Numbered from the stretch's first letter, positions 21,654 through 27,349 are shown. The stretch: 64,000 nt of DNA from Escherichia coli (GCF_003018235.1 NZ_CP027439.1); one strand, 5' to 3'. Notes: generated by a model not told the origin, from the letters alone. Numbers and translations: made by a program.

Positions 21654-21941
21654 TCACCTCATTCGTTCGCTGGCAAGATTATAAACATCACTACGTTCAC
21701 GTTTCCCTACAGCAACAACAGCGATAACTAATTGATCATCAATCACCTGATAAACCAGGCGGAAGCCAGACGCACGAAGTTTAATTTTGTAGCAATCCTT
21801 TATCCCACGCAGTTTTGCTGATGGGATATGTGGATTTTCACTGCACTTCTTTAGCTTTTTAGCAAACTGCTGCTGAATTGCCTTATCCAGTTTTTGCCAT
21901 TCTTTCAGTGCATCTTCCCTGAATCTGACTGTGTAAGTCAT
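21654..21941 (-). CDS. RelE/StbE-family type II toxin
   Basis: 95 aa; ...CYKIKLRASGFRLVYQVIDDQLVIAVVAVGKRERSDVY resembles plasmid StbE/RelE. Confidence 0.85.
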   Translation of the reverse strand: MTYTVRFREDALKEWQKLDKAIQQQFAKKLKKCSENPHIPSAKLRGIKDCYKIKLRASGFRLVYQVIDDQLVIAVVAVGKRERSDVYNLASERMR

Positions 21942-22189
21942 AGGTAGCTATCCAGATCTACATCGTGCAGCTTCTGGTTGCTGCGTTCGGCGACCAGATT
22001 AACCAGTTCCTGATCGTCTAGGGCATCGAGCATCTTTTCATACAGTTCTGCGGGGACACAGTAAAAGGCGGGCTGGTTACGGTTCAGAATCGCGACTGGG
22101 TAACCATCACCGGCACTGACTGTCGCCATCGGGTTTTTTTTCAGTTCGCTGACACTGGCGCTAGTGTCACTCAGAATAATGTGGGGCAT
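21938..22189 (-). CDS. Phd/YefM/StbD-family antitoxin
   Basis: 83 aa, overlaps toxin start by 4 bp; classic antitoxin-toxin order. Confidence 0.8.
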   Translation of the reverse strand: MPHIILSDTSASVSELKKNPMATVSAGDGYPVAILNRNQPAFYCVPAELYEKMLDALDDQELVNLVAERSNQKLHDVDLDSYL

Positions 22190-22271
22190 AGGGCACCTTT
22201 AGAGACTATTTAACAGGTCTTTATAGTGTTCTAAAAAAGACCTCTTAACAAGTCTTTTTGTCATTTTACTC

Positions 22272-22316
22272 AATGTGCCGTAAAGCCCCGCCCTTCAGGG
22301 CGAGGAGGATGTCAAA
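22272..22316 (+). repeat. 45-bp direct repeat with hairpin, copy 1 (second copy at 26028..26072)
   Basis: AATGTGCCGTAAAGCCCCGCCCTTCAGGGCGAGGAGGATGTCAAA. Confidence 0.7.
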
Positions 22317-22412
22317 TAATAGGACCCCGAAAGGATTAGTAATGTGGCGTCTTTGCTACACAGGTGCTTTTGTAATATGTTGTATAGCGTACTCACTACA
22401 CAGGAGATGTGT

Positions 22413-22952
22413 ATGGCATTGTCACAGATCAGCGTTCGTATTGATGATGAACTCAAACAACGCACGGATGAAAAAATGAAACTGCTGAGAACCAACCCCA
22501 CGCAGGCCATTACGTTGCTCTATCAGTATATTGCTGAAAATGGGAAACTTCCCTTTACTGTCAGCACCCAACTCTTCACTTCAGAGGATTACACCCAAAA
22601 ATTAATCACCACAGTCAGATCTATTTATGAATACTGGCGCGCGCTTTCTGAGACATCAGCAACAACCAGAACGAAAAGTGGAATGGCCTATTCAATGGCA
22701 ATGGCAGCACATGTTTCGAAGCTGCACAGCGATCTGATACACAACTGCGGCACCTTGAGTGGTGAAGAAGTTGCCTCATTAATGATTGTTATGGAGGACA
22801 TTCTTTCTACGCCGCCATCTTTTTATCGCGGAGAAGCGCCCGATCAGGTGTTTCAGGATAAATTAAACGCTGCTGACCAAACTATTCTGATGATTGAAAA
22901 ATGTCATGGTATGAATGTTCAACGCGGGGAAAATTTTTACGCTCTCAGATGA
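22413..22952 (+). CDS. DinJ/RelB-like ribbon-helix-helix N-terminus with ~130-aa C-terminal extension
   Basis: N-terminal MALSQISVRIDDELKQRTDEKMKLLRTNPTQAITLLYQYIAENGKLPF resembles DinJ antitoxins; C-terminal domain unrecognised. Confidence 0.5.
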   Translation: MALSQISVRIDDELKQRTDEKMKLLRTNPTQAITLLYQYIAENGKLPFTVSTQLFTSEDYTQKLITTVRSIYEYWRALSETSATTRTKSGMAYSMAMAAHVSKLHSDLIHNCGTLSGEEVASLMIVMEDILSTPPSFYRGEAPDQVFQDKLNAADQTILMIEKCHGMNVQRGENFYALR

Positions 22953-22999
22953 ATGCACTGAATATGCAACAGCCCGTAAGGGTTTTTTTTGTGTACGCA

Positions 23000-23022: not shown

Positions 23023-23085
23023 TGTGGAGCGGAAGTTACGTAACATTTGACGTAAGTATTTTTGGGATACTTATGAACTGAAATA

Positions 23086-23105
23086 AGATTTCGCATGCGA
23101 AATCT
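23086..23105. promoter_or_regulatory. parS-like palindrome 1
   Basis: AGATTTCGCATGCGAAATCT perfect palindrome. Confidence 0.6.
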
Positions 23106-23306
23106 ATTGCGTATCATTATTGATACTCTATGATTTCTCTGTATACTGTTCATATTGTCATGAACGTATGGCAACAAACGCAGTAGTAGATAGCTGCTTC
23201 TGCATCTTGGCGCAACGCCTGACTCACAGGAGTGTGTATGAAATACCGCAATGAATTCATATCATTACAGCAATACTTTTTCAATCCGCGCCGCCCCCTC
23301 TCAAAC

Positions 23307-23322
23307 ATTTCGCATGCGAAAT
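23307..23322. promoter_or_regulatory. parS-like palindrome 2 (parA operator position)
   Basis: ATTTCGCATGCGAAAT 15 bp upstream of the parA start. Confidence 0.6.
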
Positions 23323-23337
23323 CTTAAGGACTGTTAC

Positions 23338-24204
23338 ATGACACTGAAAATTGGACCTATCGGAAAATTAATCGTTATATGTAGCCAGAAGGGCGGAATC
23401 GTAAAATCGCAGTCATCCAGCGAAATAGCATATGATCTTCGAGAATCAGGTTTTCGTGTGCTTGAAATTGATATGGACTGGACTACTGGTCTGACAGAGA
23501 GAGCTTTCCCCGATAGCTTACCCTATGAGATAGAGCGCGAACCTTTAAGTAACAGTTTTACACCCGGCGAAGCGAATACATATCAGCTTTTCTTCCCGGA
23601 CACTGAAGTTCGACCGATTGAGCTTCCTGGCGGGCGTTTTTTTATTGGCGCTACCAGTGAGCTTAATGAAATTAACTACCGCAACAGCGACTGTATGTTC
23701 GACTTCAGAGACCGTATTGAAGAACTGAAGAAACAGTTTGATTTTATTATTGCTGATTCAGCGCCATCATATTCAAACGTTATGATCGCCGCACATATGT
23801 CAGCTGACTATCTTCTGATCCCTACTCTGTTGGAGAAGCAGGCCCGAAATGCAGTTGGTAAACAGCTTACTTACATGCAAAAAATAAAACGGAACTATAA
23901 TCCATCGTTGCAGTTTATGGGCACTTATGTGACCCAAACACCGGTAAAAAATTATAAAAAGCCGCTTAAAGAAGGGTATTTGGGACCTATTGATACACTG
24001 AATCTGAATCTACTCATTGAGATCCTTCAGGGAAAAGGATATTCCGAAGAGTACATTCTTGCCTATATATCATTTGTACCTGCTGCTGCCAAAGAAGCGA
24101 TAGAACTTGGCCTCTCATTTGATGAATATGATCCTAAGTGTCTTCCTGCAATTCAGTATAAAGAGCTTACCCAGAAAATTATTCAGATCGCAGGAGATAA
24201 ATAA
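23338..24204 (+). CDS. parA: ParA-family partition ATPase
   Basis: Deviant Walker A (ICSQKGGIVKSQ); overlaps parB start (TAATG). Confidence 0.8.
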   Translation: MTLKIGPIGKLIVICSQKGGIVKSQSSSEIAYDLRESGFRVLEIDMDWTTGLTERAFPDSLPYEIEREPLSNSFTPGEANTYQLFFPDTEVRPIELPGGRFFIGATSELNEINYRNSDCMFDFRDRIEELKKQFDFIIADSAPSYSNVMIAAHMSADYLLIPTLLEKQARNAVGKQLTYMQKIKRNYNPSLQFMGTYVTQTPVKNYKKPLKEGYLGPIDTLNLNLLIEILQGKGYSEEYILAYISFVPAAAKEAIELGLSFDEYDPKCLPAIQYKELTQKIIQIAGDK

Positions 24205-25235
24205 TGGCCAAGAAACCGTTTATGAAACGACTCAAGGCGCAGCAGGAAATGAAAAAAAACTCTGCTGTTGTCTCTGATATTGAACAAGTCATTGCAAATA
24301 AACAGCCAGATGAGAAGAGCCATGACGTATCTGCGCACCAGATTTTGACAGATATTTCCCGCCCGGTTCTTGAACCTGATGGACAGATAATCCGCGTCGA
24401 TATAAACCTGGTTTATGCTGAGGAACAAGTACGACCTGAAGAAGATTTCGATGAAGAGGTTATCGATGGTATGGCAGATACTTTCGAAACCATAGGGATG
24501 CTTACCCCGCCTCGTTGTTATCCCCGCGACAGACGTGGATACCAGATATGGTTAGGAGAAACACGAGTTCGTACTGCACGTAAACGTGGTGATACCCATA
24601 TTGATATTTATGTCGGTAAACCACCACGAGAAAGAAAAGAACGAATCATTGGTCAGCTCATTGAAAACCTTCAGCAATCGGGTTTAAAACCATTAGCGAC
24701 TGCAAGATCGTTCTATGAACTTAAGCATCACTTCAATATGACGGGTGAACAGATCGCAAAAACGATGGGTAAACCAACCTCATTTGTCAGTAAACATCTT
24801 CGTCTCATTGATGCTCCAGAGAATGTTACCGCCCTTCTCCGGGATAAAGTGACATCCGATATTGATTTGGCTTACACACTAATACAGGTAAATGAAAGGG
24901 CTCCTGAAGAAGCCGAGAAGCTTATTGCAGCTGCGCGGGAATCTGGTATTTCACGCGCGCAAGTTAAAGCTGTTCTTGATGAGGTTAAGAACAAAAGCAA
25001 CCGTGAGATTTCGCATGCGAAATCTAAAGCTCAGAATAAAAGGCCATCCAAGTCTCTTAATAACAATTCAGATGTAAAAAGCTGGCAGGTAGTTGTCGAG
25101 ATTGACGGTCAGCAGGGAGTAATAATGACCGACCGTGCGCCAGAGGAAGATGGCTATGTGTGGGTTAAATTAGATATTGGTGAAATATCCGTCGAGGCTT
25201 CAGAGGTTCGTGTCAAGGGAATGCGGTCTTTGTGA
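24204..25235 (+). CDS. parB: ParB-family partition protein
   Basis: 343 aa downstream of parA; ParB/Spo0J-like HTH region (GEQIAKTMGKPTSFVSKHLRL). Confidence 0.75.
   Translation: MAKKPFMKRLKAQQEMKKNSAVVSDIEQVIANKQPDEKSHDVSAHQILTDISRPVLEPDGQIIRVDINLVYAEEQVRPEEDFDEEVIDGMADTFETIGMLTPPRCYPRDRRGYQIWLGETRVRTARKRGDTHIDIYVGKPPRERKERIIGQLIENLQQSGLKPLATARSFYELKHHFNMTGEQIAKTMGKPTSFVSKHLRLIDAPENVTALLRDKVTSDIDLAYTLIQVNERAPEEAEKLIAAARESGISRAQVKAVLDEVKNKSNREISHAKSKAQNKRPSKSLNNNSDVKSWQVVVEIDGQQGVIMTDRAPEEDGYVWVKLDIGEISVEASEVRVKGMRSL
25006..25025. promoter_or_regulatory. parS-like palindrome 3 (inside parB)
   Basis: AGATTTCGCATGCGAAATCT. Confidence 0.55.
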
Positions 25236-25672
25236 TGAAATCAACCCCATTCACTGAAATGGCCACTGCATTCCGTGGCCAAATTGTCCGTCTCTGGGCG
25301 CTTCGATATCCCGGAACTCAATCCGAAGCAGCTGCTGCATTAACAGAAGCTGCTATCAATCTTGGATACGTTACAAGAAGTAGACCTGTGCCTGGAGCAG
25401 CCTTATTATCATGGTTATCGAATCCCGCTGAAACGCCTCTGTGGGCGGCTCAGACCGCATTAACGATGATGCTCAAGATTGGCTGGAAGCCAGAGAGTAA
25501 TCAAGAATGGTGTGGGATGTCGGCACTGATATTCAGAGCTAATCGTAAACTTTCACTTGAACTGTTAGTTGCATCCTTGCCTGATAGTATAGACAGGCAA
25601 ACTGCTACAGGATGGTTTGTGGCTGCAATAGAAGAAGATGCCCACTACCGTTATAACAGGAAATTCAGATGA
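25232..25672 (+). CDS. Hypothetical protein
   Basis: 146-aa ORF overlapping parB stop. Confidence 0.5.
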   Translation: MMKSTPFTEMATAFRGQIVRLWALRYPGTQSEAAAALTEAAINLGYVTRSRPVPGAALLSWLSNPAETPLWAAQTALTMMLKIGWKPESNQEWCGMSALIFRANRKLSLELLVASLPDSIDRQTATGWFVAAIEEDAHYRYNRKFR

Positions 25673-25992
25673 CCTTTCAGGAGCTTGATGCTTGTATTGC
25701 TGGCTCTGGTAGGCGTTCTATCGCTTCAGCGTTAATCGCTTTTATTCTCGATGCGTTTGATGATGGACAGGACGGAGTTGATCTTGATTCTTTCCAGAGC
25801 CAGATGCGCTTCGTTCGCAACAATGTAACAACCGTAGCCAACTATCTGCAGCGACAGGGGGTTCTCCATATACTGTATTACCGTGATGGTGCCGCAGAAC
25901 GTCAGTATGAGACCGTTAATAATTATGGACGATGGGCAAAACAGCACTATCGTCCTTCTCAGGCACTTATTCAGTTGCACCGCCGTAATTAA
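25669..25992 (+). CDS. Hypothetical protein
   Basis: 107-aa ORF, overlapping start/stop with the upstream ORF. Confidence 0.5.
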   Translation: MTFQELDACIAGSGRRSIASALIAFILDAFDDGQDGVDLDSFQSQMRFVRNNVTTVANYLQRQGVLHILYYRDGAAERQYETVNNYGRWAKQHYRPSQALIQLHRRN

Positions 25993-25994
25993 AG

Positions 25995-26020
25995 CAAAGA
26001 TTTCGCATGCGAAATCTTTG
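25995..26020. promoter_or_regulatory. parS-like palindrome 4 (26-bp perfect palindrome)
   Basis: CAAAGATTTCGCATGCGAAATCTTTG. Confidence 0.6.
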
Positions 26021-26027
26021 CTTACCT

Positions 26028-26072
26028 AATGTGCCATAAAGCCCCGTCCTTCTGGACGGGGAGGATGTCAAA
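26028..26072 (+). repeat. 45-bp direct repeat with hairpin, copy 2
   Basis: AATGTGCCATAAAGCCCCGTCCTTCTGGACGGGGAGGATGTCAAA; stem shows compensatory changes relative to copy 1. Confidence 0.7.
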
Positions 26073-26074
26073 GG

Positions 26075-27349
26075 TCATCGTATCATTGCCACCGGGAGGT
26101 CAGTCCAGCGTGTCGTATATGCTGGTGACAACATTTCGCGCTTCATTTGCCACTCAGGAGCTATGCCTCGCCCCGCAAACCACACTTTCCCAAGTCCAGA
26201 ATGGTTAATACCGTCCACGACTTTCATCAATTGATTACTGTTGCTTCGGGGCAGAGTATCATCAAACAGATTCAACTGTGAAACTCCGGTCGGCGTAAAA
26301 TCGTTCAGCATGCAGCCTGCCCTTACATAGCGGTGGCCATTCACCCAGATCCTGTCCAGGGCTTTGACGGCAGCGGCAATGATGTCCGGTGTATCCTGCG
26401 TGGGGATGAGCAGCTTTTCACTGGCCAGATTACCGTAGTAGGGCTCATTTACGGCAAACGGCGATGTTTTCACAAATACGACAATATGCCTGCAGAACTG
26501 CCGTTCGCCGCGCAGCTTTTCCGCAGCACGCTCAGCGTACTGACAGACTGCCTGACGCAGGGCTTCATACGTTGTGATACGCTCCCCAAAAGACCTGCTG
26601 CAGACAATCTGCTGTTTCGGCGGGGGAGCTTCTTCAAGCGAAATACAGCTTTCTCCGTTGAGTTCCCGGACCGTTCTCTCCAGTACAACGTTGAAATTCT
26701 TCCGGATAAATACGGGGTTCGCGCGCGCCAGCTGCAGTGCAGTGGTGATGCCCATTGTGCTTAGTTTCCTGGATATCCTGCTGCCAACTCCCCAGATTTC
26801 TTCCACCGGCTGCAGTGAAAGCAGTTTCTCCGTTCGTTTCGGATTGTGTGATGTCAGGGCAAGCACACCACCGAATTGTGGCCATTCCTTGGACGCCCAT
26901 TGCGCGCTTTTAGCCAGCGTTTTGGTTGGCCCCATCCCGACACCTATTGTCAGCCCCGTTCCTGAGCGCACGTGTTCGCGTAGCTGCCGCCCAAAGTCCT
27001 CATAGTCGATGCAGTTGTCTATACCACGGATATCGAGAAACATCTCATCGATGCTGTACTGTTCCACACGTGGCGCCAGCTCTTCTAGGTGAGTCATCAC
27101 CCTGTTAGACATGGACGCGTACAGCTCGTAATTGCTTGAGAACACGATGATCTGCTCAGAGAATTCCGCCTTCTTCAGTTGAAACCACGGCACTCCCATT
27201 TTGATACCCAGCAACTTCGCTTCTTTTGAACGGGCGATAACGCAACCATCATTGTTACTGAGTACCACAACCGGCTTGTTTCGCAAATCAGGTCGAAATA
27301 CTTTCTCGCAGCTGGCATAAAATGAATTCACATCAGCGAGCGCAAACAT
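26075..27349 (-). CDS. umuC: Y-family translesion DNA polymerase V catalytic subunit (UmuC/MucB-type)
   Basis: 424 aa; N-terminal [41 protein letters not shown]. Confidence 0.9.

Follow-up and report, generated by a model that had tools for sequence, protein, structure and literature searches.

The four copies of the palindrome ATTTCGCATGCGAAAT that lie around and inside a parAB operon in a stretch of 64,000 nucleotides of Escherichia coli plasmid DNA (NZ_CP027439.1; the whole stretch is called the window below) are, we believe, the parS sites of the ParB protein encoded between them, which belongs to the KorB/IncC-plasmid branch. We put the probability of this reading at roughly 0.85; binding is inferred from the sequence and by analogy with a homologous system. 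We presume that the same palindromes also act as operators and mediate autorepression, which is probable at a distinctly lower confidence. The new element is the site itself, which had not previously been written down for a cassette widespread in Klebsiella and E. coli; the kind of system is ordinary, that is, KorB/IncC-like. An earlier note on this DNA, made from the sequence alone, could not assign the palindrome to a named parS, and this is borne out: the core is printed in no paper in the searchable literature. The RefSeq protein accessions of the cassette occur in no paper of that literature either, and what could be found there on partition in Klebsiella, pLVPK and pK2044 was F-Sop-related or unrelated. 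The IncI partition system of pESBL was also considered and proved to be unrelated (type Ib with octamer repeats).

An exact match scan of the window gives four copies of the 16-mer (23088-23103, 23307-23322, 25008-25023 and 26000-26015), the number claimed in the earlier note, all confined to 2.9 kb; no extra copy appears in the window at up to three mismatches. Dinucleotide-preserving shuffles contain on average 0.41 matches at this threshold, and four matches were reached in 0 of 100. The coordinates also agree with the places originally named for the copies: upstream of the operon, 15 bp before parA, inside parB, and after the two downstream open reading frames (ORFs). Site 1 (23086-23105), a 20-bp perfect palindrome AGATTTCGCATGCGAAATCT, lies 250 bp upstream of parA. 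Site 2 (23307-23322), a 16-bp palindrome and, like site 1, a candidate operator as well as a candidate parS, is in the 5' leader and ends 15 bp before the parA ATG (23338). Site 3 (25006-25025), again the 20-bp palindrome AGATTTCGCATGCGAAATCT, falls on codons 269-273 of parB, and site 4 (25992-26023) directly follows the last gene, its 16-mer starting 7 bp past the stop codon of orf107, the second downstream ORF. One earlier figure needs correction: the perfect palindrome at site 4, given as 26 bp, extends over 32 bp (AAGCAAAGATTTCGCATGCGAAATCTTTGCTT), so that the perfect palindromes of sites 1 to 4 measure 20, 16, 20 and 32 bp. The extension at site 4 is specific to the lineage and not conserved, the palindrome being 16-22 bp long in relatives. 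The spacing from site to site in the window is 219, 1701 and 992 bp.

Conservation was assessed in 13 related loci, collected from PLSDB and by scanning genomes that represent single species, with ParB identities of 44-100% and 66 sites in total; the genera covered are Escherichia, Klebsiella, Enterobacter, Kluyvera, Pantoea, Izhakiella, Mixta, Providencia, Morganella and Serratia. The 12-mer TTCGCATGCGAA is kept in 66 of the 66 sites and the 14-mer core TTTCGCATGCGAAA in 65; the sole variant, site 1 of Klebsiella pKPN-332 (AATTCGCATGCGAATT), is altered at two symmetric positions, so that the dyad is preserved. Decayed copies with one or two mismatches are absent among the 13 loci. In the flanks A/T is preferred at ±1, with a weaker preference for G..C and A..T further out. 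The arrangement is kept as well: from the Escherichia to the Providencia lineages, sites are found about 200-230 bp upstream of parA, directly before it, in parB, and after the fourth gene. Site 1 is present in all clade-A loci, the site directly before parA in every clade-A locus, in the IncC plasmid and in most distant relatives, and the post-operon site in all clade-A loci that reach that far and in many distant relatives. Numbers vary: the Morganella locus has nine sites, and Serratia pSm3-1 has six upstream, one downstream and none in parB, its parB linker being different. Upstream of parA the alignment shows islands of identity (site 1, TTGATA-16-TATACT, a short hairpin, AGGAG-ATG, site 2 and the parA Shine-Dalgarno sequence), while the rest drifts. 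The distance between sites 1 and 2 is 204, 218, 219 or 230 bp depending on the lineage; strict looping between the two was considered and is argued against, helical phase not being conserved across these spacings.

The alignment of parB codons provides what is, at the bioinformatics level, the strongest single test of site function. Only 5.2% of the codon columns are identical at the nucleotide level in the 12 genes aligned, and the only nucleotide-invariant run longer than one codon is ATT TCG CAT GCG AAA, that is, site 3. It codes for I-S-H-A-K in the linker joining the DNA-binding and C-terminal domains of ParB; this linker is the most variable part of the protein, and the selection seen here acts on the DNA and not on the protein. 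Judging from the alignments, all four sites are under strong sequence-specific selection.

The sites enclose four tightly packed genes on the plus strand, parA, parB, orf146 and orf107. The product of parA (23338-24204) is a Walker-type ATPase of 288 amino acids with the Walker A motif KGGIVKS and Pfam matches to AAA_31 (1.3e-21), MipZ and CbiA. Its ATPase domain begins at residue 10, so that there is no N-terminal helix-turn-helix (HTH) or other DNA-binding domain; the start at 23338 matches the annotation in RefSeq relatives. The start of parB (24204-25235) overlaps the parA stop codon, both genes lying in one operon. ParB, a KorB-like protein of 343 amino acids, consists of an N-terminal basic peptide (MAKKPFMKRLK), ParB_N, a KorB-type HTH domain, a variable linker and a putative KorB_C domain. 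The Pfam KorB match (PF08535, residues 178-263) reaches 1.5e-16 and 60.6 bits against a cutoff of 22.3; ParB_N gives 27.9 bits (cutoff 26.3), HTH_ParB 38.9 bits and TIGR00180 75.6 bits, and the KorB_C match is exactly at its cutoff (25.0 bits against 25). The best sequence matches in the PDB are Spo0J bound to cytidine triphosphate (CTP) (6sdk, 3.8e-17), Noc (7ng0) and KorB (8qa8 and 1r71). The third gene, orf146 (25235-25672), is conserved and codes for a protein with an all-helical AlphaFold2 fold (predicted local distance difference test, pLDDT, 91.7) and no structural match by Foldseek in the PDB; it is kept in clade A, and in two Vibrio loci (L017 and L020) a homologue likewise comes after parB. 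The fourth, orf107 (25669-25992), is conserved too and has a predicted winged-helix product (pLDDT 94.6) with weak Foldseek matches to MarR/ArsR/HlyU winged-helix regulators (best E-value 7e-3, template modelling score 0.5-0.57). Neither orf146 nor orf107 matches a Pfam or NCBIfam family.

The question of which of these proteins reads the sites is answered in part by natural variation. A Morganella locus (L015) and a related contig from a metagenome-assembled genome (L014) code for ParA and ParB (60% identity) and contain 8-9 sites, including one inside parB; the 5 kb to each side contain no homologue of orf146 or orf107. It follows that the sites are tied to ParAB. This argues against the case that the earlier note had named as refuting its proposal, namely that the motif serves another regulator.

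The closest characterised system is parAB053/parS of the IncC (IncA/C2) plasmid R55, with the operon parA-parB-053 and a ParB that carries ParB and KorB domains (PMC10954446). In electrophoretic mobility shift assays (EMSA), the targets bound by R55 ParB are inverted repeats of 22 bp that share the invariant core TTTCACATGTGAAA; the backbone carries fourteen of them at scattered positions, one overlapping the parA promoter, and binding is lost when 4 bp are inserted at the centre (PMC10954446). We confirmed the core 49 bp upstream of parA in the IncC plasmid pNDM10505. The sites of the window match TTTCACATGTGAAA only with two symmetric mismatches: both are CATG-centred palindromes of the form TTTC-N-CATG-N-GAAA and differ at one symmetric base pair, G:C here and A:T in IncC. 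The two ParB proteins are 30% identical over the N-terminal and HTH/DNA-binding domains (E-value 9e-20) and 47% identical over a C-terminal block of 36 amino acids, and the ParA proteins 23% (2e-12). The systems also share a short ParA without an HTH domain, an extra small gene or genes after parB, and one site at the parA promoter or leader (sites 1 and 2 here). They differ in that the present cassette contains four sites, all within it and one inside parB, against 14 dispersed on the IncC backbone, and in that its accessory genes orf146 and orf107 are unrelated to 053: comparison of orf107 with 053, the HTH protein following parB in IncC, shows no similarity (hhalign probability 0.9%). The original reading of the palindromes as a partition centromere or operator set is thus supported by the adjoining KorB-type ParB, the core kept in 65 of 66 sites and the persistence of the sites without the accessory ORFs, and also by the EMSA with the R55 homologue, whose core differs at the one base pair.

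More distant ParB proteins, at about 30% identity, are accompanied by a related CATG-centred palindrome just before parA and often by another after the operon. The core is TTTCACATGTGAAA in Marinomonas, Thiothrix, Alcanivorax, Photorhabdus and Edwardsiella, TTTCGCATGCG(A/T/G)AA in Halomonas and Vreelandella, TTTTGCATGCAAAA in Vibrio and Enterovibrio and TTGCACATGTGCAA in Kistimonas; TTACGCATGCGTAA also occurs among these relatives. Such cores being family-wide, the sites of the window would thus be one allele of a parS design common to the family. In the recognition helix (ParB residues 190-200, window 24771-24803) clade A has K197 and R200, Halomonas with G:C sites has R192, and ParB proteins with IncC-type (A:T) sites have T, S, I or A at the positions in question; it is suggestive that the extra basic residues may determine specificity for core position 5, a comparison confounded by phylogeny. 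As a separate observation, an Edwardsiella anguillarum plasmid (L045, 67-368) carries seven TTTCACATGTGAAA cores in tandem with a 48-bp period and four more dispersed; this array is sopC-like and is built from the parS of this ParB family.

The likeness to other partition systems is more remote. RK2/RP4 (IncP-1) KorB-IncC has 12 OB operators, and its KorB acts as a sliding clamp, dependent on CTP, which represses from sites distant from the promoter (PMC11790492). The present ParB shares with KorB the type of DNA-binding domain, putatively a KorB_C-like C-terminal domain, with a flexible linker between the two, a short HTH-less ParA partner and, as we infer for the present cassette, the double role of centromere binder and repressor. 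The differences are several. The operator TTTAGCSGCTAAA is absent here (a search for TTTAGC(G/C)GCTAAA with at most two mismatches gives a single match, at another place in the window, as many as expected by chance), and Pfam and NCBIfam reveal no korA/TrfB-family gene among the accessory ORFs. The sites do not form a plasmid-wide regulon: all four are within the cassette in the 64-kb window, and likewise in a sister plasmid (60 kb) in the 50 kb of it examined. Finally, ParB is less similar to KorB structures than to Spo0J or Noc. The RA3 (IncU) module korA-incC-korB-orf11-parS (PMC7414963), likened here by its description, has in common with the cassette a KorB-type ParB, an accessory ORF after korB and a centromere-like site directly after the last operon gene; it differs by a KorA autorepressor at the operon promoter and by separate OB operators in other modules. 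As to chromosomal ParB/Spo0J (parS TGTTTCACGTGAAACA) and Noc with its binding sequence (NBS), they provide the best solved-structure matches, and the half-site TTTC-C resembles the parS half-site; the dyad here is 2 bp longer at its centre (CATG against CG), and the C-terminal domain of ParB appears to be KorB-like. A parS inside the parB gene has a precedent, the first parS of Bacillus subtilis lying within spo0J. Other centromeres were sought in the window, and no chromosomal parS, F sopC repeat, IncC core or RK2 OB was found. The cassette has those hallmarks of a ParABS system that are open to an in silico test; strictly, it is of neither the IncC nor the RK2 type with regard to sites, KorA, dispersal and accessory genes.

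The promoter region bears on the operator role. The best promoter-like match in the region (10/12) is a predicted sigma-70 promoter on the plus strand at 23120-23147 (TTGATA, 16-bp spacer, TATACT), with both hexamers kept in otherwise diverged lineages; its -35 hexamer begins 14 bp after the end of the 20-bp palindrome of site 1, or 16 bp after its 16-mer core. An alternative near site 2 (23238-23265, 9/12) is not conserved and was rejected. With no DNA-binding domain in ParA, and with sites 1 and 2 on either side of the sole conserved promoter, ParB is the probable autorepressor.

A second inverted repeat, IR2 (23106-23131, ATTGCGTATCA-TTAT-TGATACtctat), overlaps the -35 hexamer; its right arm is degenerate in this plasmid. 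The consensus is ATTGCRTATCA-N4-TGATAYGCAAT; the repeat is perfect in locus L011, and in Providencia (L004, 2409-2446) it makes up a perfect palindrome of 38 bp. There is one IR2 per locus at a constant position, and it is absent from L014 and L015, the loci without orf146 and orf107. It is possible, as a speculation, that IR2 is the operator of another regulator, perhaps the orf107 winged helix, for which or for another accessory regulator it would be a better candidate site than the palindromes.

The leader also contains an unannotated upstream ORF of 29 codons on the plus strand (23238-23327, MKYRNEFISLQQYFFNPRRPLSNISHAKS followed by the stop codon) with a conserved AGGAG Shine-Dalgarno sequence. 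It crosses site 2 as I-S-H-A-K, in the same frame as the parB site, and its TAA overlaps the parA Shine-Dalgarno sequence. The same frame and stop are found in 11 of 14 clade-A loci, with lengths of 24, 29 and 31 codons; in Providencia and Mixta the ORF has 24 or 31 codons and codes for another peptide, the peptide sequence being poorly conserved overall. This layout suggests translational coupling to parA. The arrangement of ParC before ParA in pMF1 (PMC7843461) is a loose analogy. An ATG at the centre of site 2 (23314-23316) is in the parA frame, which is open in most lineages (MRNLKDCYM-TLK...), and would give an N-terminal extension of 8 codons; the annotated parA start is more likely, as no Shine-Dalgarno sequence precedes the ATG of site 2.

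Several points weigh against reading the palindromes as parS sites of this ParB. The bare 14-bp IncC core was not bound, and the flanks mattered (PMC10954446); these flanks are AGA/TCT here against AAAC/GTTT in IncC. Binding, chromatin immunoprecipitation or stability data for the cassette were not found in the searchable literature, and the operon promoter and its transcription start are known as predictions. ParB has GETRVRTA where Spo0J has GERRFRAA, the first arginine being replaced by threonine; given this departure from GERRxRA, its behaviour as a clamp is an assumption. The operon plausibly codes for a second DNA-binding candidate, the modelled winged helix of orf107. Finally, an unrelated phage contig with 28% GC (IMGVR_UViG_3300019754_000113) carries five exact copies of the 18-mer AATTTCGCATGCGAAATT, and therefore the motif is not exclusive to this ParB family. 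No homologue of ParA, ParB, orf146 or orf107 occurs in the 18.5 kb fetched of its 46.9 kb; the contig represents either an independent use of the same palindrome or a ParB that has not been seen. The copies (L056 2694-2711; L057 1777-1794, 2785-2802, 4956-4973 and 5143-5160) are intergenic, near an integrase and a CI-like repressor. No relative of ParB was found in the IMG/VR viral collection, where most 16-mer matches are single copies at about the chance rate.

Among the alternatives, the one we take most seriously, while considering it improbable, is that the palindromes are operators only, of ParB or of ParB together with orf107, and that the true centromere lies elsewhere or is a subset such as site 4. 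Sites 1 and 2 do flank the only conserved promoter; in RK2 one of the 12 KorB sites (OB3) is needed for partition and the rest are regulatory (work cited in PMC10954446), and RA3 keeps parS apart from its OB operators (PMC7414963). Yet sites 3 and 4, which lie 1.7-2.9 kb beyond the promoter on its downstream side, show conservation no less strict than that of sites 1 and 2, the window contains no other repeat or known centromere, and all four sites have the same core with only the flanks differing, so that the sequence does not suggest a division of labour. Still less probable, in our opinion, is that the motif is bound by another protein, either the orf107 winged helix or a host regulator, and that ParB reads something else. 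The confidence of the winged-helix prediction and the phage contig with the motif five times and no ParB detected in the part fetched speak for it; the Morganella and metagenome loci, with 8-9 sites and ParAB but neither accessory gene within 5 kb, speak against it, as do the related palindromes of distant relatives without orf107 homologues and the binding of a core differing by one symmetric base pair by the homologous IncC ParB. For orf107, IR2 at the -35 hexamer is the better candidate, and the spread of the motif with the cassette across at least ten genera argues against a host factor.

The remaining two explanations we regard as very improbable, and equally so. Each site could form a perfect hairpin, and the palindromes might then work in the par mRNA, by termination, stabilisation or gating of translation; site 2 is within the upstream ORF and 15 nt ahead of the parA start codon, site 4 comes after the last gene, and a terminator scan flagged site 1 on the minus strand. 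Nevertheless, the primary sequence is invariant, with none of the compensatory drift that would preserve pairing alone, and site 1, which precedes the predicted promoter, would not be part of the operon transcript. No run of T follows site 4, which is succeeded by a separate GC hairpin; the folding of the predicted leader of 197 nt is no better than that of shuffled sequences (z = -1.19), and the Rfam match is sub-threshold and implausible. That the palindromes are the recombination or mobility ends of a mobile par cassette is suggested by the limits of homology between plasmids, within 6-14 bp of sites 1 and 4, by flanking contexts that vary between lineages, and by a Kluyvera locus in which an inserted gene is followed by two further sites. 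Against this, the conserved unit includes no recombinase or transposase, two of the four sites lie in its interior, and every site is palindromic in itself instead of being one of paired terminal repeats; selection to keep a terminal parS would explain the coincident boundaries equally well.

Returning to the palindromes as parS sites, we propose that the KorB-type HTH domain would enable ParB dimers to recognise the dyad of 16-20 bp. On the model of Spo0J and KorB, they may then bind CTP, close as clamps and slide off the loading sites, and four loading sites could keep the whole cassette of about 3 kb coated with ParB. The basic N-terminal peptide MAKKPFMKRLK would stimulate ParA on the nucleoid, and the ParA ATPase would move the ParB-DNA complex, resulting in plasmid partition. 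The ParB-site complexes would repress the operon, as in IncC and RK2, possibly with the help of orf107. A more elaborate version, which we consider unlikely, is that the cassette is a self-contained KorAB-like silencing and partition module combining a clamp and a latch (orf107 with IR2) with translational coupling through the mini-ORF. Here orf107, bound to IR2 over the -35 hexamer, would capture ParB clamps that arrive at the promoter from sites 1 and 2, in parallel to the latching of KorB by KorA, and translation of parA would be coupled to that of the upstream mini-ORF reading through site 2. If true, the occupancy of the centromere would gate both transcription and translation of the motor protein.

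The window is plasmid DNA. Three E. coli plasmids have the cassette at 99.8% identity, and virulence-associated genes (an autotransporter and type III secretion system effector genes) are present on the two of them that were examined. It occurs in 35 of 5,426 complete E. coli genomes, plasmid-borne every time, and at 80-90% identity in about 600 of the 72,556 PLSDB plasmids, mostly large Klebsiella plasmids. The two Klebsiella plasmids examined are of replicon types IncFIB and IncFIB/IncHI1B, the latter combination being typical of pLVPK-like virulence plasmids. In the plasmids examined the cassette is the sole annotated partition system. Sites 1 and 4 are the left and right edges of the shared cassette: homology to the approximately 600 diverged plasmids starts at window position 23082 or 23017 (6 or 71 bp before site 1) and stops at 26029 (14 bp after site 4), and the travelling unit is therefore bounded by the outer sites.

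As to the surroundings, a GC-rich hairpin read from the sequence at 26042-26061 (CCCCGTCC-TTCT-GGACGGGG), between the par operon and a convergent umuC, is probably a terminator distinct from site 4. An Rfam match to the archaeal RNA HgcC on the plus strand (25909-26084, 32.2 bits against a gathering score of 50), which extends across site 4 and this hairpin, was rejected as sub-threshold and implausible and is most likely an artefact of the two stems. In Kluyvera (L009, 3937-5344, and the same in L008) site 4 and umuC are separated by an inserted gene of 457 amino acids, which ends in ...GVISHAKSGYSDDEF and so contains a further in-frame parS; one more site lies 45 bp beyond, and the terminal parS appears to have been duplicated together with the insertion. 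The left neighbour of the cassette is a RelB/DinJ-like gene followed by a terminator-like hairpin (22971-22984). Directly upstream, at 21654-22952, the window contains a RelE/ParE-Phd/YefM toxin-antitoxin pair on the minus strand and this oversized RelB/DinJ-like ORF, of 202 amino acids in the ORF list and shorter in RefSeq relatives, with no annotated toxin gene adjoining.

We believe that the result is useful, the cassette being common on clinically important Klebsiella and E. coli plasmids, although it will be no surprise to the specialist. An exact centromere would give a small handle, a cloned 20-bp site, for plasmid curing or incompatibility vectors; it would allow fluorescent ParB/parS tagging orthogonal to the P1, pMT1 and F systems, and par-mediated incompatibility to be predicted for Klebsiella plasmids that share a cell. 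The one symmetric base pair that sets this site apart from the IncC parS, G:C against A:T, may serve as a natural specificity switch for mapping how KorB-type HTH domains discriminate between sites.

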